Virus record (IMG/VR): IMGVR_UViG_3300044716_000631 | Reading direction: 5' to 3' (one strand) | From: a virus | Lineage: Duplodnaviria; Heunggongvirae; Uroviricota; Caudoviricetes | Length of the DNA stretch: 64,000 nucleotides | Shown: in pieces, positions 45,876 through 62,196 of the stretch | Position numbering within the stretch: position 1 is the stretch's first letter | Layout of the letters: every line of letters starts with the position of its first letter | Position numbers and translations under genes: made by a program | The notes under the pieces: model-generated | The model's input: only the letters and a program-made list of their open reading frames with translations | Database searches by the model: none | What the model was told of the DNA's origin: nothing

Positions 45876-45877
45876 AA

Positions 45878-47988: not shown

Positions 47989-48384
47989 TTATTTTTTTCG
48001 ACCAATATTGTATTTGGTAACCAGAGTCCATTGATCTTTTTCCTTGAACGGAAGAATCTTAATCTGACTCAGCGGAGTCACAGGAGCTTTGATATTTTCT
48101 GGCTCTACAACCGCAATCAATCCCCAGTCTGAAAGCAACTGGACAATTGTATTTCTGCGACCCTTGTCTTCATCTGAAAAGTTTGAAGGTTTGCCATCTA
48201 AAGCAAACAATTCCTTGAAGTGTACAATGTAGTACTTGCCCTGCTTATGCAGAATGTGGCATGACTGATAGAGTGTGCTATCTTTGCGCGATGCAACTCC
48301 AATGCGAGTCAGTGTCTCACGTACTTTTAGGAAATCGTCTTCTTCTCCAAGTCTCACCTCAATTAAACTATCGATTAAACTCAT
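47989..48384 (-). CDS. regA: translational repressor RegA
   Basis: FLKVRETLTRIGVASRKDSTLYQSCHILHKQGKYYIVHFKE matches T4 RegA FLKVKETLTRMGIANNKDKVLYQSCHILQKKGLYYIVHFKE. Confidence 0.85.
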   Translation of the reverse strand: MSLIDSLIEVRLGEEDDFLKVRETLTRIGVASRKDSTLYQSCHILHKQGKYYIVHFKELFALDGKPSNFSDEDKGRRNTIVQLLSDWGLIAVVEPENIKAPVTPLSQIKILPFKEKDQWTLVTKYNIGRKK

Positions 48385-48785
48385 CTTTTTATCCCACCCT
48401 TATCAAGCTTTTTCTTTATTGTTTTTATCTGATCAGGTGTGAGGAGCTCGAGAGCGGTCTTGGCTTTTTGACGGTTGTATCCGAAATGTTCCATGATAGC
48501 TTCAAGATCTTCATCCTTTTCTTTTTTCACCCACTTGGAAAACCGTTTACTGGGTCGTATAATATTTATCAAGAAAGAATATTGAAGCTTATGGTCGGCG
48601 TGGTGGTTACAATTCATCATGTTTGCAGCATGAATAGTATCTGCAAAGTATGAAAGAGCTTTATTAGTAAGCCATGGGCTATAAGTCTTTTCGGCTAATT
48701 CGTCGTTTTCAGTTCCCTTCATCAGGTTTTTTTTCGACGTATTAATCGATGTTACAAAATCAAATGGGTTCATCCTGTTGTCCAC
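48381..48785 (-). CDS. 62: clamp-loader small subunit gp62
   Basis: Position between regA and gp44 as in T4; weak motif similarity (RPSKRFSKWVKKE vs T4 PRGKRYGKWAKLVE). Confidence 0.55.
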   Translation of the reverse strand: MDNRMNPFDFVTSINTSKKNLMKGTENDELAEKTYSPWLTNKALSYFADTIHAANMMNCNHHADHKLQYSFLINIIRPSKRFSKWVKKEKDEDLEAIMEHFGYNRQKAKTALELLTPDQIKTIKKKLDKGGIKR

Positions 48786-48954
48786 CCTTCATAATCACAT
48801 CAGCAGACTTATCAAAGAAGTCTGCACATTTCTCACAAATCTCAAGAGAAACCACGCCATCATCGGTATTCAATCGCATTTCATGGAACGGTACACTCTT
48901 GAGATACTTCTCTTCACACACGGCACATGTTTTGTTCCGAGCAAACCAGGTCAT
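48760..48954 (-). CDS. small zinc-ribbon protein (64 aa)
   Basis: CAVCEEK...CEKC four-Cys pattern; fills gp44-gp62 gap, overlapping both ends. Confidence 0.3.
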   Translation of the reverse strand: MTWFARNKTCAVCEEKYLKSVPFHEMRLNTDDGVVSLEICEKCADFFDKSADVIMKGGQQDEPI

Positions 48955-49886
48955 GCAAACGTACAGTCAGCCATGATCTCGGTTAGACAAGCAACGAGAT
49001 TGATTTCAGGATCAGCAGCGAATGAATTCTGATACTGGTACTTAGAGAGATGAAGTACCATCATTGGAATGCTACCAGCAACTAGATAAGTTTCAGCCTT
49101 ATCATAGAAGGCACGGAAGAATTCATTGGTATCCATGTCAGACTCAGCAACCCACTTACGAACAGCAGTGAAGTTCTTGTCCTTCATGTAACCAATCAGT
49201 TTGCCGAGAGAATCATCGCTAAAGTTACGAAGGATACCGGTATCAATACTTCCAGTAGCGCTGTAACGTTGGAGTTCGTTGATAACACGACGCCAATCTG
49301 GGAAATGCTTTTTGATAACTTCGACGACAGTTGATTTATCATAGGTTACACTTTCATTATCTAGAATACCACAAACACGACGAAGGAACTGCTTGGCTAG
49401 TTCCGGAAGTTCAGACTTGCGAATCTTAAACTTGACAACCGAACAACGAGAGTGGAGAGGCTCGATGATACGATCAACAAAGTTACAAGTTAGAATGAAA
49501 CCACAATTGGCACTGAACTCTTCCATAAAGTTACGAAGAGCTGGCTGAGTAGACTGAGCGTTCAAATAGTCAGCCTCATCAAGGATAACCATCTTACGGC
49601 CACCGGACAAAGAGACCGAGCTTGCAAAACGTGAGATGTCGTTACGCAGAGTATCGATGTTACCATTCATCGAGCCGTTGATTACGATATAGTCGCAACC
49701 AAGTTCTTCACACATGGCTTTGGCGACAGTTGTCTTACCAACACCTGCAGTACCAGAGAGAATGAGATTAGGAATGTTTTTCTGATCGACGAACTGTTGG
49801 AATACCTTCTTCAAATCTTCAGGAAGGATAGTGTCAGCAACAGTCTTGGGACGATACTTCTCGACCCAGAGGAATTCTTCAAGCAT
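48951..49886 (-). CDS. 44: clamp loader ATPase gp44 (RFC-like AAA+)
   Basis: EKYRPKTVADTILPED, Walker A GTAGVGKTT, DEAD-like ILDEAD, SRC motif LHSRCS. Confidence 0.85.
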   Translation of the reverse strand: MLEEFLWVEKYRPKTVADTILPEDLKKVFQQFVDQKNIPNLILSGTAGVGKTTVAKAMCEELGCDYIVINGSMNGNIDTLRNDISRFASSVSLSGGRKMVILDEADYLNAQSTQPALRNFMEEFSANCGFILTCNFVDRIIEPLHSRCSVVKFKIRKSELPELAKQFLRRVCGILDNESVTYDKSTVVEVIKKHFPDWRRVINELQRYSATGSIDTGILRNFSDDSLGKLIGYMKDKNFTAVRKWVAESDMDTNEFFRAFYDKAETYLVAGSIPMMVLHLSKYQYQNSFAADPEINLVACLTEIMADCTFA

Positions 49887-50007
49887 AATATCTCCATAAT
49901 AAAATAAGGTGCCGGTTACGAGTTCCGGCGTCGCCTTTTCGTATCGACCGCTTCACCCGAAGGTGCACTGTATACGCTGGCATCTTATGGTGGCCAGTCA
50001 CCAACTG

Positions 50008-50679
50008 TTAGCCCTGATAAGTAGAGCTAGACTCAACTGCAATCCAGTATTCAACATTCACGCCCTTGAAGTGGCTAAGTCCCTTTGCAGAGATCTGAAC
50101 GTTGTAGTTACCTGGAATTAGCTTGATATTGTCTGCACGGAAGACCATGCGGAAGTTGGCTGATGTAGTACCAACCTCAACACTATAAGCATCATGAGTC
50201 TTGCCTTCAGCATCAATTGCTTGAAGATGAATGGTATTACCATCACCAGTTACCGCGATATGAGGAAGCTGAGAAACGCTCAGTGCCTTCATCACCTGGT
50301 TCAGTGCTTCCTGAGTCAGAGTAAATTCAATCTCAGGATCTGGAAGAACGATATCTTTGTCAGGTGCAACCATAATCAAAGATGCATCAGACAGAGCGTA
50401 CTTGAACTTGTTCTTACCTTCACGCAGTTCTACCACCGAATCCTGAATATCCAGTTCTGCATCATTGAACAGAGACAGAGTACCAAGGAATCGTGACAGA
50501 TCATAGATGCCAAAGCCCTTAGGAATTTCTTGACCAATGGTGGACTTGGCCATTACCGACTTGGTATCCGAAATAGTGCGGATAACATTACCGGGCTTGA
50601 ACATAATGTTCTTGTTGATGGCCGAGAAATTCTTAAGTACTTGTAGTGTATTCGAATCAAACTTCATAATAATCTCCAT
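50008..50679 (-). CDS. 45: sliding clamp gp45
   Basis: LKNFSAINKNIMFKPG vs T4 LKNFATINSGIMLKSG; RFLGTLSLFND vs GFLGILSLVND; KLIPGNYNV vs KMQPGNYKL. Confidence 0.85.
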   Translation of the reverse strand: MEIIMKFDSNTLQVLKNFSAINKNIMFKPGNVIRTISDTKSVMAKSTIGQEIPKGFGIYDLSRFLGTLSLFNDAELDIQDSVVELREGKNKFKYALSDASLIMVAPDKDIVLPDPEIEFTLTQEALNQVMKALSVSQLPHIAVTGDGNTIHLQAIDAEGKTHDAYSVEVGTTSANFRMVFRADNIKLIPGNYNVQISAKGLSHFKGVNVEYWIAVESSSTYQG

Positions 50680-50730: not shown

Positions 50731-51588
50731 TTATTTTTTCTTAAGTTGGCCAACATCGGCCGTTGCTGCAGCTCCGATTTGAGCTAAGTCAACAAGACTA
50801 CCGCCGAATACATACATGCCGACGTGTTGTAGTTGCATCCATGGGCAGAACCATACCTTCATGCCAGCCTTACGTGTCCACTGGCAGAACATATAGTCTT
50901 CTGACAGATAGCGCTTTGAGTCTGGGCAGATAGGAGTATCGAAGAACGCCATGATCTCACGTGAACCATCGAAGTGTTCAGTGCGAACGTGGTCAGGCTT
51001 GTACATCTGCTGAGGATAAGCTTCCTGGAACTTGTCAAAGGTGTTACGGCGAATCATCATGAATCCGGTACCAGCTTCAAGAACTTCAACTGGTTCGCCA
51101 AGAGGAATTTCACCCTTGTCACCAGCAGGATTGAAGACGTAGTCACCTACATACTTTTCAAGCGTATTAGGATCTTCATCAGCAAAGCCCTTATCAACGG
51201 CAAGCTTAATCTTTTCCCAGCTGATGCACTTCTTCGGATAAGGACCTGCAATGATATCATAATCATCATCTTCTGGATTCTGCGACTGTAAAGCAAGCAG
51301 AGCAATCACGTCGTTGGCATTGAATCCGATGTCAGAGTCAATGAACATCAGGTGAGTATCACCCGAGCGCATGAATTCATCAGCACAGTAGTTACGTGCA
51401 CGAGTAATCAGTGATTCGTTGAAGAGGAAGTAGAATCGAACCTGAATACCATAATGAGTACAAAGAGCCGAGAGGTCAGCAATCGACCGAGTGAACATGC
51501 CGGCACATTGACCGCCATACATCGGAGCTGCTACAAAGAGCTTGCGCTCGCGAAGTTTTTCAATTGGAACATTGATTTCAATACCCAT
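50731..51588 (-). CDS. putative glycosyltransferase (GT-A-like, DxD)
   Basis: HLMFIDSDIGF acidic motif; 285 aa; family assignment tentative. Confidence 0.35.
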   Translation of the reverse strand: MGIEINVPIEKLRERKLFVAAPMYGGQCAGMFTRSIADLSALCTHYGIQVRFYFLFNESLITRARNYCADEFMRSGDTHLMFIDSDIGFNANDVIALLALQSQNPEDDDYDIIAGPYPKKCISWEKIKLAVDKGFADEDPNTLEKYVGDYVFNPAGDKGEIPLGEPVEVLEAGTGFMMIRRNTFDKFQEAYPQQMYKPDHVRTEHFDGSREIMAFFDTPICPDSKRYLSEDYMFCQWTRKAGMKVWFCPWMQLQHVGMYVFGGSLVDLAQIGAAATADVGQLKKK

Positions 51589-51590
51589 AA

Positions 51591-52019
51591 TTAATCCTTA
51601 TTTTCAGTGTCGTGTACGTGGAGTTGCATAATTGCATAGTGGATAACCTTGAGAAGGTCTTTGCGCCATTCGGCTGGATCGCCCTTGCGACCGTAACGTT
51701 GCGTGTACTTCATCATATTCCCAATATTGAAACCAGTCCCATGACCAGCGTCAATAATGAATTCTGTTGCTTGGAATTTATTTCGGGAATAATGCTGATT
51801 GTAAGTAGCATCGATGTAAGACTGAATCTCTTTCACGAGATTGCCTTCGTTATATTTATAATCGATTAAATGCTTTGCTTGAATTCCTGGAATAAAAGTT
51901 GCAATAGTTCCTTGAACCCCTTCGACACCAGTTATGCCTGTTGCATTCAAAGTAGATCCGTGTCCTATTGTAAGTTTTCCTGCATCACTCATTTCTTCTT
52001 CAATCCTTCTTGCACTCAT
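51591..52019 (-). CDS. hypothetical protein, DUF3310-like
   Basis: C-terminal FNIGNMMKYTQRYGRKGD resembles phage DUF3310 GNAxKYxxRxxxKG. Confidence 0.35.
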   Translation of the reverse strand: MSARRIEEEMSDAGKLTIGHGSTLNATGITGVEGVQGTIATFIPGIQAKHLIDYKYNEGNLVKEIQSYIDATYNQHYSRNKFQATEFIIDAGHGTGFNIGNMMKYTQRYGRKGDPAEWRKDLLKVIHYAIMQLHVHDTENKD

Positions 52020-53230
52020 TATAAAAACGCCTCCAATGATGCTTTCTCTTCATATGTGCTGGTTTGTGAATGATTATATTGAACGATATAATCTGTGTTT
52101 AGCATCTTCCTTTCACCCTTCAGGTATGCTACAACTTCGGTTGCCATATCAGTTGCAGTCTGAACTGGAACATTCTGGCAAATCATATTGGCGTTGCGTG
52201 GGCTTGCGTCGACCAGTTCAAAGTCTTGTGGCAGACCCATGATTGTCATTGCTTCGCGATAATTGATATAGCGATCCTGTGTAGGGTGAGCAAGCATAAC
52301 GGGATAATGACCGACAAAGGCACCGATATAGTCACGTGGGACAATTGTGTTACGTCGCATAATAGAGCCACCAGCAGCAAGCTTATTGTGACGATACTTA
52401 CACTTTTCAACTTCTCTTTCGTAACCATTGGCTTCCATCCACTTTGCTACCTCGAGGTAGTTAGTCTTGGTTTCAATATAAGCTAGAACGTCAGCATTAC
52501 GAGCAGACTCGGCTGGAATTTGCTGAGCAAACTGAGCATGAGTGATTCCACCTTCCAACTCTTCTAGAATGTAGCGATAGTACGGATCATCAATTGACGG
52601 AGTCTTTTTGTTAATCGGATCAGTCTGGAAGTTCGAGTTGATGTTGGTCAGCAACTGCTCAATAGGAGTATACGGACGATTGTAGAAGTTCAACATTGGA
52701 ACCTTATCGTCTCTCCAGAAGAAATAGAACGAACGCTCACGAACCTGAGGAATGCCATGCAACAAAGAACGAGTACGATACACAGTCATGGTGTATCCAT
52801 TCTCTTGGCCAATACGTTTTAGATTATTGCGAACTGTATCACCAACTTTACCAGCAAACCCTGGAGCATTTTCACCCCAGAGTACTCGTGGCTTCATGTT
52901 TGTAAGAACATATTCAGTACTTTCAGCCATCCAACGATTATTGGGGTTGTGATCGCCGTAGCCATGACTAAGCATAGAGAGACCAGCACAAGGACACACA
53001 CTGTGTACAACATCGACAGGATGCGGGTGAACACCACCTTGGTCAAGGAGGATATATGGAATGTCTGATTCATATTTGTTCTTATAGTAGTTTAAGATGT
53101 GCTTGTCATTTGCTTCAAACGGAGAGTAAGACAGAAAATAATCTGGCGCTCTACCATGAGCAGCATGAGCACCCAGAGTCTCACCACCAATGAGTGGTAC
53201 GATACTCGCATGAGTAAATTCACTTTGCAT
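52019..53230 (-). CDS. DNA (cytosine-5)-methyltransferase-fold enzyme
   Basis: C5-MTase motifs: PC motif VCPCAGLS (IV), GENAPGF (VI ENV-like), QVRERSFYFF (VIII QxRxR); N-terminal AdoMet motif atypical (PLIGGETLG). Confidence 0.6.
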   Translation of the reverse strand: MQSEFTHASIVPLIGGETLGAHAAHGRAPDYFLSYSPFEANDKHILNYYKNKYESDIPYILLDQGGVHPHPVDVVHSVCPCAGLSMLSHGYGDHNPNNRWMAESTEYVLTNMKPRVLWGENAPGFAGKVGDTVRNNLKRIGQENGYTMTVYRTRSLLHGIPQVRERSFYFFWRDDKVPMLNFYNRPYTPIEQLLTNINSNFQTDPINKKTPSIDDPYYRYILEELEGGITHAQFAQQIPAESARNADVLAYIETKTNYLEVAKWMEANGYEREVEKCKYRHNKLAAGGSIMRRNTIVPRDYIGAFVGHYPVMLAHPTQDRYINYREAMTIMGLPQDFELVDASPRNANMICQNVPVQTATDMATEVVAYLKGERKMLNTDYIVQYNHSQTSTYEEKASLEAFL

Positions 53231-54317
53231 CTAGAATCCTTTGCAATTCATACTGTTGAGTATTTTTATTCAGCGGATGAGTATCATACAAACATTCGTA
53301 CATACGATTACCAAGCTGAGCAAGTTCTTCAACACTCATATTTTCAATCGATTGAATAGAATTTCCTACGAAGGCATCGCCGTAGATAGCTCCTTCTTTA
53401 TCGGAGCAGAGCAGGATGGATTTACAATCAACAACCTGTTGAACTCGAGATCTCCACCAGCCAGAACCGGCATGGTAGTATTCTGGCATTAAGCATCCCC
53501 AGTTCCTATTATATATACGACACATTTCTGGTTCGATTACTCGTTCGCCCTTGAACTCACCACGCTTAGCACCAAAGCTCAGGATTGGCCAGCTAGGAGC
53601 CTGAAGCTTCAACCACTTCTGAGTTTTAGTTTGAATGAGAGATGAGAACACCCACTGCTTTTGCTTATCGTTCGGATCTACGATATCATCATCAAGAAAC
53701 GCAGCAAGACCCGAAACCTCTTCACCATAGTTATTGAATGGCGAGCGATTCAGGTTGTAGGGATTCGGGTTGTAAGTAAAGACTGGACCCTGCCAGTTCA
53801 AACCAAAGAGTGTAGGATCACCACCAGCAAAAGAACAAATCAGAAGACGATTCTTTTTGGCGTTGATAATCTTACAGGATTCGATGTAGTGGTTACGATT
53901 ATTCTTCAGAACTTCTACTGGTTCGTTACCAGCATACAGATCAAGAAGGTACGGACGAAACGCAGCTTCACCTTCGCCTTCTTCAAGATTTTTTTGATAA
54001 CCAGTAAAGCTGGTAAAGACCTGATCTACCTGCCAATCATCAAAAGCCAGAATACAATCTGGTCGAGCTGCTACAGCCCAGAGACCAGAATAAAGACGCT
54101 GGCAAAAAGACTGAACCGAGTGAAGATAGACAATCACTTCATCGTAGCTCGAAAGATCTTCGCCCTGTTCTACAGGACGCTGCTCAACTTGCCAACCCAT
54201 ATCTTCGAGACAACGAATCAATGAGAAGTGAGAGTTTAGAATTTTCAGTTGCTTACGCTGAAAGTAGTCTCGTTCATTTTGTTCAGCGTTAAAGCCGGTA
54301 ATCAAAATCTTTTTCAT
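53220..54317 (-). CDS. putative DNA glycosyltransferase (hmC glucosyltransferase candidate)
   Basis: 365 aa, N-terminus MKKILITGFN reminiscent of T4 beta-GT MKIAIINMGN; adjacent to dCMP hydroxymethylase; assignment by context. Confidence 0.3.
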   Translation of the reverse strand: MKKILITGFNAEQNERDYFQRKQLKILNSHFSLIRCLEDMGWQVEQRPVEQGEDLSSYDEVIVYLHSVQSFCQRLYSGLWAVAARPDCILAFDDWQVDQVFTSFTGYQKNLEEGEGEAAFRPYLLDLYAGNEPVEVLKNNRNHYIESCKIINAKKNRLLICSFAGGDPTLFGLNWQGPVFTYNPNPYNLNRSPFNNYGEEVSGLAAFLDDDIVDPNDKQKQWVFSSLIQTKTQKWLKLQAPSWPILSFGAKRGEFKGERVIEPEMCRIYNRNWGCLMPEYYHAGSGWWRSRVQQVVDCKSILLCSDKEGAIYGDAFVGNSIQSIENMSVEELAQLGNRMYECLYDTHPLNKNTQQYELQRILDAK

Positions 54318-54982
54318 TATTTCACCAAGTTAAAATGACGTTCATAAACGTGGAGTGAACCAACATGCCAGACGATCTTTGGTTCTTTTGTCAGCCTCAA
54401 GTCTTCAGTCAGACAATCAGCAACATACTTCTGCCATGCATAGTCATTACGATAGCCAAAGACAACATCATTGGAACGCATCTGAACTACTGCTACCAAC
54501 TGATCGTCGCGAATCATGTACTGCACTGCGTTTGTGCACATGAAATCAGACATACCATCACGATTATAATCCTGCCACATGGTAGGACGAGTGTAGATCA
54601 TGACAGCACGACGACTGTTTGGAGATTCCAGTAACTCACCTAGAACATTAACATATTGTAGATAGTTATCTTTGTGCCAGATAGCCCAGCCATAGTTGGA
54701 ATTAATCTTGCCGGAACTATCAGCAACAGAAGTCCAGATCTCTGGCGGATTTGCTTCTTGCTTACCACCAGGAATATCTTTCACATAGAGAGACATTGAC
54801 TTGTACCAGTCAAGTTCACGTTGGATGTAGTCTTCATTCGGCTTACCGAAGATGGCTGGTTCGTTTGCTTCGAACGTAGCACCAATCATTTCGATAGTCT
54901 TGACACCAGTTTTGTCAGTGACAAACCGTTCAGACTTCAGTTCCTGGATGAAGTAATCTCGAATGTGTTCAACCTTCAGCAT
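54317..54982 (-). CDS. 42: dCMP hydroxymethylase (T4 gp42)
   Basis: FVTDKTGVKTIEMIGATFEANEPAIFG...RAVMIYTRPTMWQDYNRDGMSDFMCTNAVQYMIRDDQLVAVVQMRSNDVVFGYRNDYAWQKYV closely matches T4 gp42. Confidence 0.85.
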   Translation of the reverse strand: MLKVEHIRDYFIQELKSERFVTDKTGVKTIEMIGATFEANEPAIFGKPNEDYIQRELDWYKSMSLYVKDIPGGKQEANPPEIWTSVADSSGKINSNYGWAIWHKDNYLQYVNVLGELLESPNSRRAVMIYTRPTMWQDYNRDGMSDFMCTNAVQYMIRDDQLVAVVQMRSNDVVFGYRNDYAWQKYVADCLTEDLRLTKEPKIVWHVGSLHVYERHFNLVK

Positions 54983-55337
54983 TCAGTGTGCCTCCAATTT
55001 TGCTGCCATCGATCTTGATAGGACGATTTACAAGATCTCGTTTTGTATCTTGGCCTTCCATCTTTCCACGGCTGTAGGAGACAAAGAAGGATAGGTAGTT
55101 GATGGCATCTTTGGCCGAGTCTTCGAGCGATTCAAAGTTGGCTGTCTCGCCTTGTTCCATCGCTTCCATAACAGAATAAATTCGAGTAATTTTCTGATGG
55201 ACCATATCAAGAATCGTAGCACAACCACGCGGATAATGATCAGCCTGACGAATACGCGACTTTTCATTTTGATAATCTTTCGACTTTCGTTGTTGAAGTT
55301 CAGCACATTCTTGTAGGACTTTAAGAGATTCACGCAT
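54969..55337 (-). CDS. MazG/HisE-like NTP pyrophosphatase (candidate dCTPase, gp56 analogue)
   Basis: All-alpha NTP-PPase-like pattern; position next to gene 42. Confidence 0.35.
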   Translation of the reverse strand: MRESLKVLQECAELQQRKSKDYQNEKSRIRQADHYPRGCATILDMVHQKITRIYSVMEAMEQGETANFESLEDSAKDAINYLSFFVSYSRGKMEGQDTKRDLVNRPIKIDGSKIGGTLNAEG

Positions 55338-55797
55338 AAGCTTTTTCCTTTATACTTCGTCTAAATGGAGATAGTGAGTCGGACATTTCTACCAATTGAT
55401 CTACTCTATCATCGTTTTTAATTGTTGTCAACAGATAAAGCTTTTCTTCTGGAATAATAACCATTTTGCAAACGTTGCCATTCTTTACTCTGTTTTCAAT
55501 TTGCAAATTCTTGTTATTAGGACACAGATAAATCTTAGATCCTTCATTAGCGTAAATGGGAATATCAACAATGAAAAAAAGATCTACAGATGAAACTTTA
55601 TCGTACTGATTAAGTTCCAACCAGTATTCAGGCTTATTGCGCATTCTTGTCAGAGTCTTAATTTCAGCAGTCATAGAGCCAAGAACACCATCCTTGACTC
55701 TATCAAATTTATCTTCACTTAAAATAAAATTTGGACCGTGAAACTCTTGTACAAAACATTCACCAATATCACCTATTGCATTTTTAGTAGTTGTCAT
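55330..55797 (-). CDS. hypothetical protein, possible PD-(D/E)xK nuclease fold
   Basis: D...EIK arrangement (SEDKFDRVKDG...TAEIKT); weak. Confidence 0.3.
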   Translation of the reverse strand: MTTTKNAIGDIGECFVQEFHGPNFILSEDKFDRVKDGVLGSMTAEIKTLTRMRNKPEYWLELNQYDKVSSVDLFFIVDIPIYANEGSKIYLCPNNKNLQIENRVKNGNVCKMVIIPEEKLYLLTTIKNDDRVDQLVEMSDSLSPFRRSIKEKAYA

Positions 55798-56357
55798 TAT
55801 ATTACACTTTTCAATTTGTTTTGAAATTCAACCGCATTCTTGCTCACTGCTAATTCACGAGCAAATGAGATTATATCAAGTAATTCAATTGATGTCAACT
55901 CTTCAAGTGCGTCTTGGGCACGAGAATATTTGCCATCATTTCCTTCTGAAGCTTCTCTCCACTTGAAAGTGTAACCATATGCTTTGGTGGTGTTGTTATG
56001 AATCCAATCTTCAAGCTTTTTAATATCACTTACATCGCAAAAAATGTAGCGAACAAAGATTTCAGATTCTTTACATAGGTTGTTTTGTTTAATATAACGA
56101 TTTACACCGTGGCTACCTTTTGGCTGCCGCACAGTATAAGTTCTATCATAAACATTTTTTCCTTTGCCTGTGTAACCAATATTTTGGTGCACAAGGGTGT
56201 CACCAATTTCTTTGATATCAGATACATGAGCAATTTGATAGACACCAGAACTGTTATCGTTATCACGTTCTGTGCTACCGTTTGATGGGATTTGAGACAC
56301 AGGCCTCCAGTCGGAGATATCTGCGATTTTTACTGGACAATCTTCACTTGTAAACAT
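55797..56357 (-). CDS. hypothetical protein, possible GIY-YIG-like endonuclease
   Basis: SGVYQI ... NIGYTGKG resembles GIY...YIG with atypical spacing. Confidence 0.25.
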   Translation of the reverse strand: MFTSEDCPVKIADISDWRPVSQIPSNGSTERDNDNSSGVYQIAHVSDIKEIGDTLVHQNIGYTGKGKNVYDRTYTVRQPKGSHGVNRYIKQNNLCKESEIFVRYIFCDVSDIKKLEDWIHNNTTKAYGYTFKWREASEGNDGKYSRAQDALEELTSIELLDIISFARELAVSKNAVEFQNKLKSVI

Positions 56358-56971
56358 TATAAAATTTCCTTACGAATCCAACCTACATATTTTTTTGATT
56401 GGCTTTTGCAACGGTTATACACATCTTGTATTTTACAGGAATTTGCATCAGCAGCTTCCTTAGAACTCTTATACTCTATATCATTAATAATGTAAACATG
56501 TTTTTGTTTACGTATGGGTTTTTTTCTAACGTATGGAACTAACTTAATGCCTACTGCCTCATATTGTTTTTCCCATGTATCATAACCTGAACCAAGTTTT
56601 TGATAAGGCTTTAACGCAATGTTTTCCTCGTTAGTTACGTAGTTAACTTGGCATACCTTTTTAATAAAGGCAACCAAGTCATCAAAAGTAGCGCCGGCAT
56701 CTAGCATTTCAAACATTTTGAATGCACTTGCCTGCCGAGGATGAAAATGTTCTTTAGTCAACTCTGATTTTTTAAGATGTTGGCCTTTTTCTGAAACAAG
56801 TCCACTGTCTATAGCTGGACAATCAAAAATGCCATTGCGAATAAGCCCAATAGCCATATGCCGCTCATCCGGATCGTGTCCGTGAGCGGCATGGTTTGAA
56901 ATAACAATTCGTGCTAACGTTTCATATTTTTTAGACATAATAAGTTCCCTTGTTACTATTACAGTATACAA
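56357..56971 (-). CDS. hypothetical protein (204 aa), possible homing-endonuclease-like DNA-binding tail
   Basis: His-rich N-terminus, basic C-terminus; preceded by strong early promoter. Confidence 0.3.
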   Translation of the reverse strand: MYTVIVTRELIMSKKYETLARIVISNHAAHGHDPDERHMAIGLIRNGIFDCPAIDSGLVSEKGQHLKKSELTKEHFHPRQASAFKMFEMLDAGATFDDLVAFIKKVCQVNYVTNEENIALKPYQKLGSGYDTWEKQYEAVGIKLVPYVRKKPIRKQKHVYIINDIEYKSSKEAADANSCKIQDVYNRCKSQSKKYVGWIRKEIL

Positions 56972-56991
56972 AGTTTTTCAAAAAATGTCAA
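56963..56991 (-). promoter_or_regulatory. sigma70-type early promoter (TTGACA-N17-TATACT)
   Basis: Minus TTGACA 56986-56991, spacer 17, TATACT 56963-56968. Confidence 0.5.
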
Positions 56992-56998
56992 CAGTTTT

Positions 56999-57751
56999 TT
57001 ATCGCCACTCATTTCCGTAGCGTGAATCGTACTTTTTATCAGGGCTATACATGCTGAATTTTTCCCAGCCAGGATCGCCTACCTCTAAACGTTTACCTAT
57101 ACTGTATTGACCAATATGCGTAACAAGGTTTTGGCCTTCGCTATTTTTCAACTTGCAAGTTTTCAAGTCAAGATTCTTAAGGCATTCGGCAACTACAAAT
57201 TCACTGAGATTATGTTGTGTATAATCTGAGTATGGAACATTTGTAATCGACCTAGCGTAGAAACTAGCAAGACTCCAGAAGAATTCCTGATTTATTTCAC
57301 CGCGATATTGTTCACTCAGAATTTCATCTGTTTCTAAAGCCTGAGTTTCTGGTTCATGGTCATACCACTTTTGGCGTGATAAACAAATCTGCGAATAGTC
57401 ATCGTGGCTCTTCAGAATTTCAATCAAATCTGTAATCTTAATTGGCTGATTAATTAAGACATCATCTTCTGAATGATACACATAATCATAATCTCGTTCG
57501 GACAAAAGCTTAAATGTATCATTCCAGTTACGAGCAATTCCATGATTTTCCTGGTGTAGAATTACTTCATCATAGCCAAACATCTTGGCCAATTCATACA
57601 CCGTTCCGTCATGTCTTTTCTTTGGCATGTCGTCAATGAAAACACCATGCACTTCACAACCAGAAAAATCCAGCATGTCACGTTGAGATTTTAGAGTTGG
57701 AATTAGATATTCTAATCTATTCGTCGACCAAATAACTTTACAAATTTTCAT
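56999..57751 (-). CDS. putative glycosyltransferase (GT-A-like)
   Basis: HSEDDVLI acidic motif; tentative. Confidence 0.3.
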   Translation of the reverse strand: MKICKVIWSTNRLEYLIPTLKSQRDMLDFSGCEVHGVFIDDMPKKRHDGTVYELAKMFGYDEVILHQENHGIARNWNDTFKLLSERDYDYVYHSEDDVLINQPIKITDLIEILKSHDDYSQICLSRQKWYDHEPETQALETDEILSEQYRGEINQEFFWSLASFYARSITNVPYSDYTQHNLSEFVVAECLKNLDLKTCKLKNSEGQNLVTHIGQYSIGKRLEVGDPGWEKFSMYSPDKKYDSRYGNEWR

Positions 57752-58299
57752 GAATATTTCTCAGTATCAAAGAAAAATGTTTGAAACAAACGACCATCAT
57801 ATAGATCTTTACCAAAGTAGTCTAGGCTAGCATGAAACAAGTCGCCCTTGTAAATAACAAGTCTATTATACTTATTGCCTACGGTATCAATCTTATCCCA
57901 TTTGGTATAGTCATATGCTTCATGCAAATTTTCTTTTGCACGATATTCGCCAGTTTCTTTGTGTCTATAAATCGCAGTGCCACCAGAAACTGGTGCTTCA
58001 GGATTCAAATAACAAACGCCAGCCCACATGCTAGTATGATCGCAATGAATCCATGTTCTATCACGTGCAGTAGTATATTGGAAGCTTCCAGTGTAACCAT
58101 CTTCTTCAAACCAGTTGGTAATGTTACCAGCAAAATTCATGAAATGCTGAATGCATGCCTTTATTTCTGGTGTAAGAAAAGATCTGGTTCTAGCTCCAGG
58201 AAAGTTTCCAGTCACAGTATAGTCCTGTGCTAGAGCAAATGCCCGAGTGGCATCTGGATTTTGATAAAAATTATCAATGACCATTAAATCTAAATGCAT
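57748..58299 (-). CDS. putative 2OG-Fe(II) oxygenase superfamily protein
   Basis: HCD...H arrangement (IHCDHTS ... LFHAS) and C-terminal Arg; tentative. Confidence 0.35.
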   Translation of the reverse strand: MHLDLMVIDNFYQNPDATRAFALAQDYTVTGNFPGARTRSFLTPEIKACIQHFMNFAGNITNWFEEDGYTGSFQYTTARDRTWIHCDHTSMWAGVCYLNPEAPVSGGTAIYRHKETGEYRAKENLHEAYDYTKWDKIDTVGNKYNRLVIYKGDLFHASLDYFGKDLYDGRLFQTFFFDTEKYS

Positions 58300-58710
58300 T
58301 TACTTTTCCAGCTTTGTTAGTAGACCATGATTATTAGCATGACTTGGTGCTTTCCATCCAGCAGGTTTAATCAGATCTGGTAGACCAAGTGGATTCGGCC
58401 GTTCTGGTTTTACGCCAACTTCCTTAGCAAGGTTAGCACGTAAGACTTTATTCCATGCTTCATATGAGTCAATACCCATCGAATCCAGTGTACCAATGGC
58501 AACAACACAAAGATCGATTAAGCCATCTACAATCTCTTCGGCATTCTTTTCACGCACTGCCTTCTTAGTCTCATTGAGTTCCTCATCAAGGAACGCCATA
58601 CGAAAGTTCAGAAACTGCTTGAGTTTCTCGGCATCAAACTCTTGGACTTTCTCATTGACACCGTAATACCGATGCATGCCATTAATATCTCTTACCCAAT
58701 CTTCACTCAT
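58300..58710 (-). CDS. mazG: MazG-like nucleotide pyrophosphohydrolase
   Basis: EExxE-type acidic helices (FLDEELNETKKAVRE ... IVDGLIDLCVVAIG). Confidence 0.55.
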   Translation of the reverse strand: MSEDWVRDINGMHRYYGVNEKVQEFDAEKLKQFLNFRMAFLDEELNETKKAVREKNAEEIVDGLIDLCVVAIGTLDSMGIDSYEAWNKVLRANLAKEVGVKPERPNPLGLPDLIKPAGWKAPSHANNHGLLTKLEK

Positions 58711-59409: not shown

Positions 59410-61125
59410 TCATGCTGCGATCCGACTAAAGTTCTTATGCTTCTCGAACTTAACTACAGAATGGAACTTATCATAGAGCTGATCACCCTTGTGGCTAATC
59501 ACAAAGGTGTTAGTATCCTGGGTCAGACCTTCGAGAATCTTCATGAATTCTTCCGTACCGCCGACGTCAAGCGACGAGTCGAAGACTTCATCCATGATGA
59601 GAAGGTTGGTCGAAGCAGAATTGCGGAGCTTAGCAATAGCCCTCCAGGTAAACATAAGGCTAAGATCAATGCGCATTTTTTCTCCCTCGGAGAAAGAGGC
59701 ATAGCTGAAATCGTCTCTGTAACGCGATTTAATAGTTTCATTAAAGTTTTCGTCCAATTCGAACTGGACAAAGAAGTCCATAGCGGCAAGGTATTTATTG
59801 ATTAGCTTATTCATCACAGGAACATACTGCTTGATGATCTTTGTCTTAATACCTGTGTCCTTCAATAGAACACCGGCTACTTCTAAAACTTGACGATGGT
59901 GAGTCAGTTCTTCTTTGCGAGTCTTTGTCTTATTCAGATCTTTCTTGAAAGTATCAATATCATCGTTGCCACTGTCAATGGCTCGTGTATTGTTACGAAT
60001 CGATTCAATCTCAGCAGTCAAAGTCTTAATCGAGTTTTGCCATGAACGAATGTCTGCATTGTGTCCAGTGATCTGGTTATTATGAGACGTGATTTGAGTA
60101 TTGATCTCAGCAATCTCTTGAATTCGAGCATCAAGACTTGCCAATTGATTTGCCAGTTGAACCATAGCATCTTCAACTTCAGAAGTCTTAGACGTACGAT
60201 TGTGAATCCATTCTTCCTTGAAGCCGTGGTCGATGCCTTGGCGACATGTCGGGCAGTTATCATGATCGTGGAAGAATGAAATTTCTTTCTTGAACTTCTT
60301 GATCTTGTTTTCAAACTCACTTTCCATATGAATGAGTTTTGACCGACGACGCATTACACTATCACTATCTTCAATGAGTGCGCTCAATGTAGTTATACTC
60401 AGGCTTACAGTCTCAATAGCTGCTTCTGTTTCAGCAATACGATCTTCAAGTTCACCTAGCATTTCTTGCTTGGCTTTAATCAGATCATCGTTGTTGGTAC
60501 GAAGAGAGACAATATGCTTCTCAGCCAGTTCAATCTTGTTCTCAATCAGAGTAATCTTATGATCTGCTTCATTGATATCATTACGATTCTCAATAATCTT
60601 TTCTTTGAGCAACGTGTTCATTGTGCTGAAGATTTGAATATCTAATAGGTCTTCAATCACTTCTCTACGTGCGTGTGCAGGAAGCTGCATAAAGGGCAGA
60701 TAGTTTGCAGAACCTAGGACTACAATCTGGCCGAAAGATTTGAAACTTAATTTCAAGATCTGCTTCTCAAATAGATCTTGATAATCTTTTACAGACGAGT
60801 TTTGGTTAATAAGTACATTATTTTGGTAAATCTCGAAGAGATGTGGTTTCATGCCTCTTTTTACAAGAAAATCATTTTTACCTACAGAGAACTCACATTC
60901 TACGAGAAGTCCCTTATTTGTAATAGAGTTCATCAACTGCGGTTTGTTGATGTTACGGAATGGCTTACCATACAAAGCAAATACCAGCGCATCCAGTATC
61001 GTGGACTTGCCGGCTCCATTCTCACCAACGATTAAAGTTGATTTACTACGATCCAACTGGATCTCAGTCATTTGATTCCCTGTTGACAGGAGGTTCTGCC
61101 AACGAAGCTTTTTAAAATAAATCAT
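59410..61125 (-). CDS. 46: recombination endonuclease subunit gp46 (SbcC/Rad50-like ATPase)
   Basis: Walker A GENGAGKSTILDAL, long coiled coil, C-terminal signature/Walker B LIMDEVFDSSLD; similar to T4 gp46. Confidence 0.85.
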   Translation of the reverse strand: MIYFKKLRWQNLLSTGNQMTEIQLDRSKSTLIVGENGAGKSTILDALVFALYGKPFRNINKPQLMNSITNKGLLVECEFSVGKNDFLVKRGMKPHLFEIYQNNVLINQNSSVKDYQDLFEKQILKLSFKSFGQIVVLGSANYLPFMQLPAHARREVIEDLLDIQIFSTMNTLLKEKIIENRNDINEADHKITLIENKIELAEKHIVSLRTNNDDLIKAKQEMLGELEDRIAETEAAIETVSLSITTLSALIEDSDSVMRRRSKLIHMESEFENKIKKFKKEISFFHDHDNCPTCRQGIDHGFKEEWIHNRTSKTSEVEDAMVQLANQLASLDARIQEIAEINTQITSHNNQITGHNADIRSWQNSIKTLTAEIESIRNNTRAIDSGNDDIDTFKKDLNKTKTRKEELTHHRQVLEVAGVLLKDTGIKTKIIKQYVPVMNKLINKYLAAMDFFVQFELDENFNETIKSRYRDDFSYASFSEGEKMRIDLSLMFTWRAIAKLRNSASTNLLIMDEVFDSSLDVGGTEEFMKILEGLTQDTNTFVISHKGDQLYDKFHSVVKFEKHKNFSRIAA

Positions 61126-61129
61126 GTAA

Positions 61130-62194
61130 TTACTCTACCTGTAAAGCTTCACTATACAACGTTCTGAGAAAATTGTCAAGGCGTTTTTTATCTACTGGAG
61201 TTTCCCACTGGTCGACTACCTTAGTCAAGATTGTGAGCGTGTCTTCCGCTTCATTAACAATGTCACTGTCATCTTCCAATTGAAGATTGAGATTGTCTTC
61301 GACCACTTGGATATCAAGAGCACCTGCCTTTTCAAGTCTATCAATATATGTATCAAACCAGAAAGGATTGTTCTTGTTCTTCACAATTACTTTTACGTAA
61401 GATCCTTGAGTCGCTTCAAAATCGAATCCATTGATGGTATCGAATCCATTCCACTTGGCATCGTCATAGAACCACTTTTGAAACATTGTGTAGGGATTTT
61501 GGATGAACTGCAATTCTCGAGTTTCTGTGTCGAATATATGAAAGCCCCGTGGATCATCAAAATCAGACCAAGACATTTCATACGGTGCGCCAAGATAATT
61601 GATATTGCCTCGTGTGGATTTATGATGGAAATGACCAGAACAAACGAGATCAAACTTATTAAAAACGCTAGTAGATAGACCATGATCGTTTACGGCTCCT
61701 CGATACATTTCGAACCCTGCAATTTCGAGATGCCCAAAAAGGATCTGCGCGTGAGTTTCTTCGACGAAGCGCATTGACTCGTCGTAGTTACCTGAGCAGA
61801 CCCACGGCAAGACAGCAATATCAGTGCCATCAACATTAACAACAGTAGGTTCGTCATAATAGTTTATCTCATACTTTGAGTGATCGTACAGTTCGCGCAT
61901 AGCATTAACTTCGTTTGTGTTCTTGAACGAAGTATCATGGTTACCAATAATCACATCTAGTTTAATGTTTGAGGTGTGGCATTTATCGATGAATGATCTA
62001 AGATGTCTTGCTGTGACAAAGTTGATATACTTACGTCGATCAACAATATCACCAAGATGGAAAATCCGAGTAATACCATTGTCAGCAAGAGTCGGAAAAA
62101 AGAATTCATAATAAAACCTGTTAAAGTACTCGGCAAACGCAACAGAATCTCCACGTGCGCCAAAGTGTGTATCAGTAATCAAAGCAATTTTCAT
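61130..62194 (-). CDS. 47: recombination endonuclease subunit gp47 (SbcD/Mre11-like)
   Basis: Metallophosphoesterase motifs MKIALITDTHFG, GDIVDR, GNHD, GHFH. Confidence 0.85.
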   Translation of the reverse strand: MKIALITDTHFGARGDSVAFAEYFNRFYYEFFFPTLADNGITRIFHLGDIVDRRKYINFVTARHLRSFIDKCHTSNIKLDVIIGNHDTSFKNTNEVNAMRELYDHSKYEINYYDEPTVVNVDGTDIAVLPWVCSGNYDESMRFVEETHAQILFGHLEIAGFEMYRGAVNDHGLSTSVFNKFDLVCSGHFHHKSTRGNINYLGAPYEMSWSDFDDPRGFHIFDTETRELQFIQNPYTMFQKWFYDDAKWNGFDTINGFDFEATQGSYVKVIVKNKNNPFWFDTYIDRLEKAGALDIQVVEDNLNLQLEDDSDIVNEAEDTLTILTKVVDQWETPVDKKRLDNFLRTLYSEALQVE

Positions 62195-62196
62195 TT

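Follow-up and report, generated by a model that had tools for sequence, protein, structure and literature searches.

Genes at the locus

The window, a 64,000-nt stretch of viral DNA, comes from an uncultured T4-like myovirus with 25 tRNA genes. (Cultured relatives include Pseudoalteromonas phage vB_Psh_XG4 and cyanophage S-TIM5.) A sequence-only reading had proposed a single 8-kb cluster for cytosine hypermodification there. Every open reading frame that it listed is present where it was placed, all on the minus strand, and the motifs are real. The module is flanked by gp45 (the clamp gene) and gp46 (the recombination nuclease gene), and the genes for the 155-aa, 122-aa, gp42, 365-aa, 403-aa, 142-aa, and 285-aa proteins are tightly packed, with overlapping start and stop codons. 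Just upstream of this block, also on the minus strand, is a match to a sigma-70-type promoter (55870..55898; TTGACA, 17 nt, TG, TATAAT). It is the sole 12/12 match in 9 kb, and by its consensus alone we consider it a candidate promoter.

The gene set is seen again in dozens of independent metagenomic contigs, so the clustering is beyond chance. A single 8-kb cluster was not borne out: the true core is smaller and consists of the 122-aa protein, gp42, the glycosyltransferase, and a methyltransferase-like protein. Several other members are accessory or are older residents of the interval.

The accessory genes include a pair that had been read as an oxygenase and a glycosyltransferase. The 183-aa protein (57748..58299) belongs to DUF6445 (PF20043, E = 2.7e-15) and weakly resembles 2OG-Fe(II) oxygenases (2OG-FeII_Oxy_5, PF13759, E = 0.036). 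The protein is not TET/JBP-like (it has no match to Tet_JBP or in the PDB), and its gene is confined to two loci of the closest relatives (L015 and L016). It travels with the gene for a weakly GT2-like protein of 250 aa (56999..57751), which is present in L010, L015, and L016 only. The match of the 250-aa protein to GT2 (PF00535) is below threshold (20.7 bits against a cut-off of 23.3), its matches to PHROG glycosyltransferases are weak, and it has no match in the PDB. In L015, the pair separates gp42 from the 365-aa gene.

The suspected homing-endonuclease ORFs are accessory as well. The 204-aa ORF (56357..56971) weakly matches phrog_314, "homing endonuclease" (E = 1.7e-4), is 30 to 100% identical even among near-identical relatives, and lies outside the modification pathway. 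The 186-aa ORF (55797..56357) looks GIY-YIG-like by eye (GVYQI...IGYTG); it has no match in Pfam or NCBIfam and is found in the closest relatives only.

The 285-aa protein (50731..51588) is a GT-A-fold glycosyltransferase (motifs R..DSD..EDY) whose gene is a conserved neighbor of gp45. It also occurs in Stenotrophomonas phage DLP6 and in the Sinorhizobium phiM12 group, where we found no gp42 or methyltransferase-like gene. We conclude that it has been in the gp45-gp46 interval for longer and is not specific to hmC phages. Two GT-A-like glycosyltransferases had been suggested for this cluster; the 285-aa protein does have the fold, but it is not tied to hmC, and the other candidate is the 250-aa protein with its sub-threshold match.

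Two small proteins complete the block. The 142-aa protein (51591..52019) contains DUF3310 (PF11753, E = 1.1e-7), which is common to PHROG families annotated as nucleotide kinase, so a nucleotide kinase is a possible function, as a lead only. In relatives, its position alternates with PF16473 (Rv2179c-like exonuclease). The 155-aa protein (55330..55797) had no match in family searches, and its gene often precedes the 122-aa gene: homologues lie upstream of it in the L036-L043 group, L055, L105-L107, and L113.

A dCMP hydroxymethylase and its partners

The 221-aa protein (54317..54982) had been called a definite gp42 dCMP hydroxymethylase, and we agree. It belongs to PF00303, is 64% identical to T4-group gp42 across 99% of its length, and matches the solved T4 dCMP hydroxymethylase (PDB 1b49/1b5e) with E = 8e-89. 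Its active-site string (MSDFMCTN...MRSNDVVFGYRNDYAW) keeps the catalytic Cys, Asp169, and the Asp residues at ThyA-143 and ThyA-177. This is the hydroxymethylase signature D143/C146/D169/D177 (in the E. coli ThyA numbering). Asn at position 169 is the mark of 5-hydroxy-dCMP synthases (PMC13326640). All TS homologues for which we inspected this string, the window's gp42 included, have Asp there. As the residues that separate the two kinds of synthase are kept, we predict that the product is 5-hydroxymethyl-dCMP. Because D169N is absent from the window's gp42 and from every relative checked, we also predict that the base is 5hmC, not 5hoC.

A pyrophosphatase of the MazG/HisE type had been proposed as an analogue of the T4 dCTPase. 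The 136-aa protein (58300..58710) is indeed a MazG/PRA-PH-type all-alpha NTP pyrophosphohydrolase (PF01503, E = 3.4e-10), with matches to the MazG-like dUTPase DR2231 in the PDB (E = 6.5e-5) and to phrog_671 and phrog_18404, and in most relatives its gene precedes the module. Similarity to the T4 dCTPase gp56 was found for neither this protein nor the 122-aa protein. We infer that the 136-aa protein is a candidate depleter of dCTP or dUTP.

The 122-aa protein (54969..55337) is a conserved partner of gp42. Its gene overlaps the start of gp42 by 14 nt and, in most relatives with enough flank, lies upstream of the TS gene, usually directly. It has no match to the PDB, gp56, or MazG. On the phrog_18404 profile, it matches positions 168-252 and the 136-aa protein matches positions 48-140, which suggests that it is the counterpart of the C-terminal portion in MazG-type proteins that have two parts.

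A candidate DNA glycosyltransferase in an exchangeable slot

The sequence-only reading had suspected a DNA glucosyltransferase near gp42. The 365-aa protein (53220..54317) has a confident GT-B fold model whose top structural match is T4 beta-glucosyltransferase, and it is a credible candidate for an hmC-DNA glycosyltransferase. What occupies its position in related phages strengthens the case: a homologue of T4 alpha-glucosyltransferase (37-41% identical to the T4 enzyme), a TET-associated glycosyltransferase (TAGT), or a weakly GT4-like protein. (Matches in this slot include PF11440, E = 3.6e-73, and PF20691, E = 2e-14.) In some relatives, an enzyme of the 365-aa type is paired with a UDP-galactopyranose mutase, which points to galactofuranose as the sugar in those phages.

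A divergent, phage-restricted C5-methyltransferase-family protein

The 403-aa protein (52019..53230) matches the C5-cytosine methyltransferase family (PF00145, E = 4.9e-19, above the gathering score). As had been read from the sequence, motifs IV (CPCAGLS), VI (GENAPG), and VIII (PQVRER) are present, and so is motif X (CQNVP). All four are nearly invariant among 128 representatives of 50%-identity clusters. The catalytic Cys (the PC motif), whose absence was to count against the assignment, is intact: C81, E120, R164, and R166 are kept in 128-129 of 129 sequences of the family. N41-[D/E]42 matches the "N-E" pair of motif II, and D63 (the Asp of motif III) and Q352-N353-V-P are largely conserved. 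Judging from these residues, the protein keeps everything needed for covalent catalysis on cytosine, and it probably keeps the AdoMet-binding residues. One family member is fused to a CXXC zinc finger, which is a reader of unmethylated CpG DNA.

The family is essentially limited to phages. It has only four matches in 185,579 species genomes; three of these carry the phage module, and the fourth is a 1.2-kb MAG fragment. Its degree of conservation is similar to that of core replication proteins. Of the 33 loci with a copy of 40% or higher identity and 5 kb or more of upstream flank, 32 have a hydroxymethylase-type TS homologue, at a median distance of 1-2 kb. The gene directly upstream is usually a glycosyltransferase (the 365-aa GT-B protein, AGT, TAGT, or the weakly GT4-like protein). 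Linkage to hydroxymethylase and glycosyltransferase genes is seen in at least five different gene layouts. In L047, the TS/GT/MTase-like set is together at another genome position, between gp43 and uvsX. It is likewise together in the cultured and non-syntenic phage XG4 (there the MTase-like gene follows TS, a sugar kinase/nucleotidyltransferase gene, and two GT-like genes). In a remote subfamily, TS is missing within 10 kb in 23 of 32 loci; genes for FkbM, an NTP-transferase, a GT-like protein, and an epimerase flank it there, and neither TS nor TET is found within that distance. A methyltransferase in an hmC phage had been flagged as unexpected, and its recurrence in these layouts bears that out.

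Comparison with known systems

The T4 hmC pathway consists of the gp56 dCTPase, gp42, the gp1 kinase, and the alpha- and beta-glucosyltransferases. The window resembles T4 in its gp42, with the same active-site signature, and in the glycosyltransferase gene directly downstream of gene 42 (beta-gt in T4). The window's GT-B fold is closest to T4 beta-GT, and relatives carry true alpha-GT homologues. Unlike T4, the window has MazG-type proteins in place of a detectable gp56 homologue, its 365-aa enzyme lacks sequence similarity to either T4 glucosyltransferase, and a C5-MTase-family gene, of which T4 has none, is integral to the block.

In phage systems that combine a C5-methyltransferase, a TET-like 5mYOX, and a glycosyltransferase (Burke et al. 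2021, PMC8256090; bioRxiv 10.1101/2023.12.21.572611), a phage-specific C5-MTase also adjoins DNA glycosyltransferases, and the window's relatives include a TAGT-family member. The same survey found methyltransferases, dCMP deaminase, and the gp45 clamp near ThyS-associated glycosyltransferases. In contrast to those systems, the cluster lacks a TET/JBP dioxygenase. Here a TS homologue would provide the hydroxymethyl group before replication, so there is no need for the MTase as a source of 5mC, and still the gene persists.

The top PDB profile match of the 403-aa family is CmoX (8yf3, E = 1.1e-6), from the CmoA/CmoX/CmoY 5-carboxymethylcytosine system of Synechococcus phage S-B43 (PMC12783734). 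The alignment covers 249 columns, from motif IV to motif X, and includes part of the variable region. Both lie in a phage hypermodification context with a MazG-type gene nearby. A CmoX-type identity was rejected: at the motif X position, the window protein has Asn where CmoX has its carboxymethyl-binding Arg. It also has CPCA instead of SPPC, and we found no CmoA or amide ligase in the cluster or in the window ORFs scanned.

The glycosylated 5-hydroxycytosine pathways of RB69, DLP3, and RL38J1 (PMC13326640) share a TS homologue and GT-B glycosyltransferases with the window, and sugar-nucleotide genes with its relatives (the UDP-galactopyranose mutase; the XG4 sugar kinase/nucleotidyltransferase). 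They differ from the window in having the diagnostic D169N and in lacking a C5-MTase-like gene.

Proposed pathway and the role of the methyltransferase-like protein

We propose that the module is expressed early and replaces cytosine with glycosylated 5-hydroxymethylcytosine, as T4 does. MazG, perhaps together with the 122-aa protein, would lower dCTP; gp42 would make hm-dCMP; a kinase (the DUF3310 protein or the product of a gene outside the window) would lead to the triphosphate; the polymerase would incorporate hmC; and the 365-aa enzyme would attach a sugar after replication. From the gene content, hydroxymethylation and glycosylation are highly likely. Against the proposal, the parts of the window that were examined yielded neither a gp56 homologue nor a recognizable dNMP kinase.

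The least certain step is that of the 403-aa enzyme. It may carry out ordinary C5 methylation of cytosines in phage DNA that escaped replacement, so that every cytosine would have a C5 substituent. We give this step slightly less than an even chance, and the explanation as a whole, with this step included, a probability of roughly 0.55. The conserved catalytic residues, the conservation of motifs II, III, and X, and the CXXC fusion in one member fit residual-C methylation. Several observations do not. Complete replacement by hmC, as in T4, would leave a C5 methyltransferase nothing to act on in phage DNA. Glycosyltransferase and sugar-nucleotide genes are tightly linked to the MTase-like gene in five architectures, even where TS is absent within 10 kb, and such linkage exceeds what a simple "mop-up" enzyme would require. 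Finally, motif I is atypical (the canonical F-x-G is absent), the N-terminal 65 residues have no profile-level alignment to HhaI or CmoX, and the NCBIfam dcm score (34 bits) is far under the cut-off of 100.65.

One alternative is a repurposed C5-MTase fold that acts in the hypermodification itself together with the adjacent glycosyltransferase. It might place a hydroxymethyl (or other) acceptor on DNA cytosine after replication, using one-carbon units that do not come from the methyl group of AdoMet, or it might attack C6 of 5hmC so that the 5-substituent is exchanged or remodelled. The presence of a glycosyltransferase or sugar-nucleotide enzyme directly upstream in unrelated layouts, the restriction to phages, the strong conservation, and the atypical motif I all favor such a role, and CmoX, the nearest relative with a solved structure, itself uses a non-methyl donor in hypermodification. 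Bacterial C5-MTases reportedly add aldehydes to C and derivatize 5hmC in vitro (work of Liutkeviciute et al., 2009 and 2011), which also favors it. Nevertheless, motif II N-[D/E], the motif III Asp, and the motif X Asn are conserved as expected for AdoMet binding, and in the cluster and those larger window ORFs that we scanned, we found no gene (CmoA, for example) for making a different cofactor. Also, synteny among T4-like genomes is in part a matter of descent and is no proof that genes work together; T4 dam adjoins gene 56 without sharing a pathway. We consider repurposing somewhat unlikely.

It is less probable still that the genes have no functional link, unrelated early genes having gathered in a hyperplastic gp45-gp46 interval and the MTase being an orphan whose substrate is host DNA or else RNA (the phage's own tRNAs, for example). 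Suspected mobile endonuclease ORFs and variable cassettes are scattered in the interval, the 285-aa GT-A proves that some neighbors are unrelated to hmC, TS is absent near most remote-subfamily copies, and the phage has many tRNA genes. But the TS/GT/MTase-like set is intact when relocated and in XG4, the close-subfamily loci retain the linkage (32 of 33) while the surrounding genes change, and the CXXC fusion points to a DNA substrate.

Lastly, a second, post-replicative route beside gp42 (5mC from the MTase, 5hmC from the 183-aa oxygenase, and glycosylation by the 250-aa protein, as in phage MT-TET-GT) is very improbable: all three gene types are in the window, L015 has the oxygenase and GT2 genes inside the core, phages are known to have MT-5mYOX-GT systems, and ThyS and 5mYOX occur together on rare contigs, but the oxygenase is a DUF6445 protein without a Tet_JBP match or PDB relative, the GT2 match is below threshold, and almost every relative with the MTase-like gene lacks the pair.

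We return to residual-C methylation as our preferred, if tentative, role for the 403-aa protein. Whatever its reaction, this methyltransferase-like family recurs beside genes for DNA sugar transfer in many distant phages.

A predicted cytosine-modification cluster within a T4-like replication module

Judging by comparison with T4, the cluster is surrounded by a T4-like replication module, and all of the region's genes are on the minus strand. The primase gp61 is at 933-1952, the helicase gp41 at 23399-24814, UvsX at 24811-25881, and the DNA polymerase gp43 at 26367-28865. RegA, gp62, gp44, and gp45 are spread over 47989-50679, and gp46, gp47, and gp55 are spread over 59410-62918. In T4, the interval between gp46 and gp45 contains only rpbA and 45.2, while in the window it holds the modification cluster. 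Every ORF that was listed in the sequence-only reading is present.

We did not find a near-identical phage: with megablast, none of 50,697 phage records had a DNA-level match to the region. By gp46, the closest cultured relative is Stenotrophomonas phage DLP6 (55% identity), followed by T4-like phages of Methylophilales, Sinorhizobium, and Synechococcus. A perfect match to a sigma-70-type promoter lies directly 5' of the packed block bounded by the 155-aa and 285-aa genes, which is consistent with early expression of the block.

The rest of the window has several features of its own. 25 tRNA genes, which serve nearly all amino acids, are packed into 40916-45954 (minus strand), in a stretch with only short ORFs and higher GC content. 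At 32869-37402 (minus strand) is a set of bacterial-type signaling and secretion genes, which is odd cargo for a T4-like phage: a 686-aa protein with CHASE2 and adenylate/guanylate cyclase, a FecR-domain protein, a weak curlin-repeat protein, and a homolog of the curli channel CsgG (E = 4.5e-48). Short or nested ORFs aside, only one ORF of 90 aa or more is on the plus strand, at 28939-30132; its product is lysin-like and has two domains, one of peptidase M15 and one that is GH19 chitinase-like. There are also a T4 Rnl1-type RNA ligase (20754-21965), a DenV-like pyrimidine-dimer glycosylase (15549-16103), and a DUF6267 protein (12910-14079). (A DUF6267 protein also adjoins the cluster in Pseudoalteromonas phage XG4.)

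The thymidylate synthase homolog is predicted to be a dCMP hydroxymethylase

The 221-aa protein (54317-54982) is a thymidylate synthase (TS) homolog (PF00303, E = 4.8e-13). It had been called a definite gp42 (dCMP hydroxymethylase) from the sequence alone, and the comparisons bear this out. It aligns to the solved T4 dCMP hydroxymethylase (PDB:1b49/1b5e) across residues 3-220 (E = 8e-89), and it is 64% identical to the gp42 of the T4 group over its whole length. The core replication proteins are less similar to those of T4 (about 40-58% identity in tblastx segments), which suggests that the gp42 gene was exchanged horizontally or is under unusually strong constraint.

We then compared the active-site residues, which lie in MSDFMCTN...MRSNDVVFGYRNDYAW. 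FMCTN and GYRNDYAW align residue by residue with T4, and the catalytic cysteine (Cys148 in T4) is present. At the position that governs specificity for cytosine, Asn177 of ThyA is replaced by aspartate. (The significance of the cysteine and of this aspartate is described in PMC13326640.) In SDFMC, another aspartate lies three residues ahead of the cysteine, which places an acidic residue at the position of Leu143 in ThyA. Some homologs of gp42 (RB69 gp48, DLP3 gp80, and RL38J1) make 5-hydroxy-dCMP, not 5-hydroxymethyl-dCMP, and asparagine at the position of Asp169 in E. coli ThyA is the mark of these synthases (PMC13326640, 2026). The 221-aa protein retains Asp169 (in RSND), and on this residue we reject a 5-hydroxy-dCMP synthase. 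Because all of its signature sites are the same as in T4, we predict that it is a hydroxymethylase-type enzyme. The hydroxymethylase signature is the same in every TS homolog that we inspected beside a related MTase-like gene.

An exchangeable slot for DNA glycosyltransferases

The start codon of the 365-aa gene (53220-54317) overlaps the stop codon of gp42, which resembles the adjacency of 42 and beta-gt in T4. We found no Pfam, NCBIfam, or PDB sequence match that would place the 365-aa protein with the alpha- or beta-glucosyltransferases of T4 (AGT or BGT), and no tblastn match to T4. Its predicted structure has a GT-B fold with two Rossmann domains and is closest to phage DNA glucosyltransferases.

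Between the TS (or a dCMP deaminase) and the MTase-like gene, related contigs differ in the gene that they carry. The occupant of this slot may be a member of the 365-aa family; a full-length homolog of AGT (37-41% identity, tblastn ~1e-89; PF11440, E = 3.6e-73); a TET-associated glycosyltransferase (TAGT; PF20691, E = 2e-14); or a 406-aa protein whose only matches are weak ones of the GT4 type. We regard the exchange of known DNA glycosyltransferases into this slot as strong evidence for glycosylation of hmC in DNA by the 365-aa protein. The GT-B fold and the genomic equivalence with AGT and TAGT make the earlier suggestion of a possible DNA glucosyltransferase credible, in the broader sense of a DNA glycosyltransferase.

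In some relatives, a UDP-galactopyranose mutase is paired with the 365-family gene. These pairs are found in cultured T4-like phages of Aeromonas and in a Kyanoviridae phage. (The adjoining genes are at 4893-7074 of locus L004, from Aeromonas phage 25; at 8995-11027 of L003, from phage C48C1; and at 5909-8004 of L006.) The pairing suggests that in those phages the sugar is galactofuranose, that is, that their DNA bases are galactofuranosylated. There is no UDP-galactopyranose mutase in the window's cluster. Separately, in some marine relatives a gene of about 250-280 codons separates the dCMP deaminase gene from that of the glycosyltransferase (L034 6309-7157 and L033 8010-8750). Its product begins with ...NWRTGSTYF..., which by eye recalls the PAPS-binding loop of sulfotransferases, and has no match in Pfam.

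Core and accessory genes

The core of the cluster is the 122-aa gene, gp42, the glycosyltransferase, and the MTase-like gene. The 122-aa gene (54969-55337) overlaps the start of gp42. Among the relatives whose flanking sequence is long enough, most have it upstream of gp42, usually directly. The 136-aa gene (58300-58710) is usually a few kb upstream of the core. As proposed from the sequence alone, it encodes a MazG-like protein: it has a PRA-PH/MazG domain (PF01503, E = 3.4e-10) and matches DR2231 in the PDB. The 136-aa protein matches the N-terminal half of phrog_18404 (a profile of 264 positions), and the 122-aa protein matches the C-terminal half. This suggests that the two proteins act together, and their counterparts are probably fused in other phages. 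By profile and pairwise comparisons, neither the 122-aa family nor the 136-aa protein is similar to T4 gp56, nor are they similar to each other, so the label "dCTPase-like" holds as an analogy only.

In relatives, the place of the 142-aa DUF3310 protein is sometimes taken by an Rv2179c-like exonuclease. Because the DUF3310 domain is common to PHROG families that are annotated as nucleotide kinases, this protein is a tentative lead for the hm-dCMP kinase.

The 285-aa protein (50731-51588) is one of two GT-A-like glycosyltransferases that had been proposed for the cluster. Its predicted structure does have the GT-A fold, and it has a DxD motif within R..DSD..EDY; similar motifs have been reported in GT-A enzymes that act on phage DNA. 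(It has no match to PF20691.) But a role in the hmC pathway did not stand. This family, with at least 8000 homologs, greatly exceeds the MTase family in size, and it includes proteins from DLP6 (68% identical) and the phiM12 group. The corresponding interval in DLP6 contains neither gp42 nor an MTase-like gene. Because the 285-aa family occurs in phages where no gp42 was found, we leave it out of the hmC pathway.

The DUF6445 oxygenase-like gene (183 aa) and the GT2-like gene (250 aa) are present only in the closest relatives, and the 204-aa ORF has only a weak match to homing endonucleases. Sequence or profile searches of the PDB with the 365-, 122-, 155-, 183-, and 250-aa proteins found nothing significant.

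A divergent relative of cytosine C5-methyltransferases

The 403-aa MTase-like protein (52019-53230) scores 69.4 against Pfam's family of C5-cytosine methyltransferases (PF00145, E = 4.9e-19), for which the gathering score is 22, and 34.3 bits against NCBIfam's dcm, for which the cut-off is 100.65. As a single sequence, its matches in the PDB reach E = 3e-4 at best. With a profile of its family, the best solved relative is CmoX, the cytosine C5-carboxymethyltransferase of cyanophage S-B43 (PDB:8yf3; E = 1.1e-6), with 249 columns aligned from motif IV to motif X. By these matches, we classify it as a very divergent member of the C5-cytosine methyltransferase family.

We then examined the conservation of its functional residues, using 128 full-length cluster representatives and the window's protein (n = 129). 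In motif IV (CPCAGLS), Cys81 is present in 128 of 129 sequences and Pro80 in 112. In motif VI, Glu120 is invariant and Asn121 is present in 127/129; in motif VIII (QxRxR), Gln162 is present in 127/129 and both Arg164 and Arg166 are invariant. Motifs VI and VIII can be aligned to HhaI and CmoX. The three motifs claimed in the sequence-only reading are thus near-invariant across the family, and the catalytic cysteine on which that reading had staked its assignment is there upon alignment.

The N-terminal part is more divergent. The first 65 residues have no profile-level alignment with HhaI or CmoX, and the F-x-G-x-G-G of motif I (the AdoMet loop) is absent from the family. Instead, we find [IV]-P-L-I-G-G, with just the final Gly-Gly kept. 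Asn41 (121/129) and the acidic residue at position 42 (Asp or Glu; 125/129) fit the "N-E" of canonical motif II, in our reading without structural superposition. Asp63 (89/129) fits motif III, and Asn353, in motif X, is present in 122/129. Overall, the conserved residues indicate that the protein retains what covalent catalysis on cytosine requires, and AdoMet binding is likely.

Is the 403-aa protein another carboxymethyltransferase? The hallmarks of CmoX are an SPPC motif and Arg350 in place of Asn304 of HhaI (PMC12783734). The 403-aa protein has CPCA and Asn353 at these positions, and we found no CmoA-like gene (Cx-SAM synthase) in the cluster or among 20 other large ORFs in the window. The two diagnostic residues and the lack of a CmoA rule out a CmoX-type enzyme.

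Base composition was uninformative about the target of the MTase-like protein. In the window, dinucleotide and palindrome statistics (CpG 0.90, GpC 1.07) gave no strong depletion of CpG or GpC and no avoidance of sites. One metagenomic member of the family (P0471, 598 aa) has a C-terminal zf-CXXC domain (PF02008, E = 6.6e-7). In eukaryotes, zf-CXXC is a reader of unmethylated CpG, and the fusion hints at reading of unmodified C.

The MTase-like family is essentially restricted to phages and, in its closer members, linked to hydroxymethylase-type TS genes

Among 1.84 billion representative proteins, 348 clusters (at 50% identity) matched with E ≤ 1e-30, and the 403-aa protein has more than 2000 metagenomic homologs. 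Across 185,579 species of bacteria and archaea (one genome each), we found only 4 loci. Three of these are MAG contigs with the phage module, and the fourth is a 1.2-kb MAG fragment with a TAGT-like gene and part of an MTase-like gene. The family is phage-restricted, with essentially no cellular members detected.

For gene context, we used 43 IMG/VR loci found with the window's protein as the query, 57 found with three remote members, and contigs from two look-ups. If the MTase-like protein is at least 40% identical to the window's, then a TS homolog is present in 32 of the 33 loci with at least 5 kb of upstream sequence, at a median distance of 1-2 kb. Below 40% identity, the corresponding count is 9 of 32. 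In the closer group, the MTase-like gene is usually preceded immediately by one of the glycosyltransferases, or by the mutase that follows one. The module is not bound to one position in the genome: in two relatives (L047 and L050), MazG, the 122-aa gene, gp42, a deaminase, a TAGT, and the MTase-like gene are located between gp43 and uvsX.

In most loci of the remote subfamily (under 40% identity), there is no TS within 10 kb; where a TS is found, it is again of the hydroxymethylase type. These MTase-like genes are flanked by an FkbM methyltransferase, an NTP-transferase, a GT-like gene, and an NAD-dependent epimerase/dehydratase, and a DDD-motif gene and a GT1 gene lie downstream. One remote locus (L064) has, amid the sugar genes, a 372-aa ORF (13581-14696) that covers just the C-terminal portion of a family-B DNA polymerase, which suggests that the polymerase gene is split.

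Two cultured phages have more distant members of the family. Pseudoalteromonas phage vB_Psh_XG4, whose record is unannotated, encodes an MTase-like protein that is 33% identical to the window's. Its cluster (L002 100-6580) comprises, in this order, a hydroxymethylase-type TS, a small gene whose phosphatase-like matches are all weak, a sugar kinase/nucleotidyltransferase fusion (NTP-transferase and APH kinase), two GT-like genes, and the MTase-like gene. The cluster looks complete, and XG4 is a ready experimental model. Cyanophage S-TIM5 encodes an MTase-like protein that is 32% identical to the window's, with a TS 3 kb away. This TS is annotated as "ThyA" (L001 4784-5620), but it has aspartate at the position of Asn177 (GVPLD) and cysteine at position 143, so it may act on dCMP rather than dUMP.

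The proposed pathway and the role of the MTase-like enzyme

The hydroxymethylase and the fold of the glycosyltransferase are evident from comparison, and we infer the other steps of the pathway. The MazG-type proteins would deplete dCTP. gp42 would make hm-dCMP (its predicted activity), which a kinase, together with host enzymes, would raise to the triphosphate. The polymerase would then incorporate hmC, and the 365-aa enzyme would add a sugar after replication. A pathway of hmC and its glycosylation is of an already known type.

For the MTase-like protein, we favor ordinary AdoMet-dependent methylation of the cytosines that escaped replacement, because the catalytic and probable cofactor residues are kept, because motif X has asparagine and not arginine, and because of the CXXC fusion. 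This proposal has two weaknesses. First, if replacement by hmC is complete, then there would be no substrate. Second, the gene stays paired with sugar-transfer genes across several independent layouts, which calls for a closer functional tie.

The same repeated pairing argues for the main rival, as does the nearest solved relative, CmoX, which proved to be a hypermodification enzyme. The rival is that the 403-aa protein represents a large, phage-only branch of the C5-MTase fold that is itself a DNA-hypermodification enzyme and works with DNA glycosyltransferases. It might make an acceptor group on cytosines after replication with a non-methyl donor, or it might covalently activate 5hmC or its glycoside for further substitution. 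We consider this rather unlikely, though it is the likeliest of the rivals.

A TET-like route via the DUF6445 protein is less likely: this is the only oxygenase-like gene in the cluster, it does not match Tet_JBP, and it is missing from most relatives. With no TET/JBP dioxygenase beside the MTase, the cluster does not belong with the MT/5mYOX (TET)/GT systems. It is also less likely that these neighbors are together by pure coincidence.

Significance

That methyltransferases, dCMP deaminase, and the gp45 clamp occur near ThyS-associated glycosyltransferases had already been remarked on, but not analyzed, in a published survey of glycosyltransferases from phages. In the literature that we searched, we found no description of the association of MTase, TS, and glycosyltransferase. 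So far as that literature shows, a conserved phage-restricted MTase-like family that is tied to hmC-sugar modules is undescribed, and there is a substantial chance that the MTase-like enzyme hides new chemistry.

Abundant uncultured phages of metagenomes carry a predicted T4-type hmC-sugar pathway with an extra cytosine-C5 enzyme. If this enzyme methylates leftover cytosines, then these phages would have two different cytosine marks, which bears on how complete base replacement is beyond the T-even phages. If its reaction is instead a step of the hypermodification, then it would be a new DNA-modifying activity. Both questions are directly testable in cultured phages, namely XG4 and the S-TIM5 group, and Aeromonas phage 25, which lacks an MTase-like gene, could be used for the glycosyltransferase alone.

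The modifications of phage DNA determine which bacterial defenses work, and phage modification has provided tools for epigenetic sequencing (T4 beta-glucosyltransferase, TET-like enzymes, and CmoX). If the MTase-like enzyme makes an acceptor group with a non-methyl donor or covalently activates 5hmC or its glycoside, then cytosines would be modified by a new enzymatic route, one that parallels that of the recently discovered CmoX.
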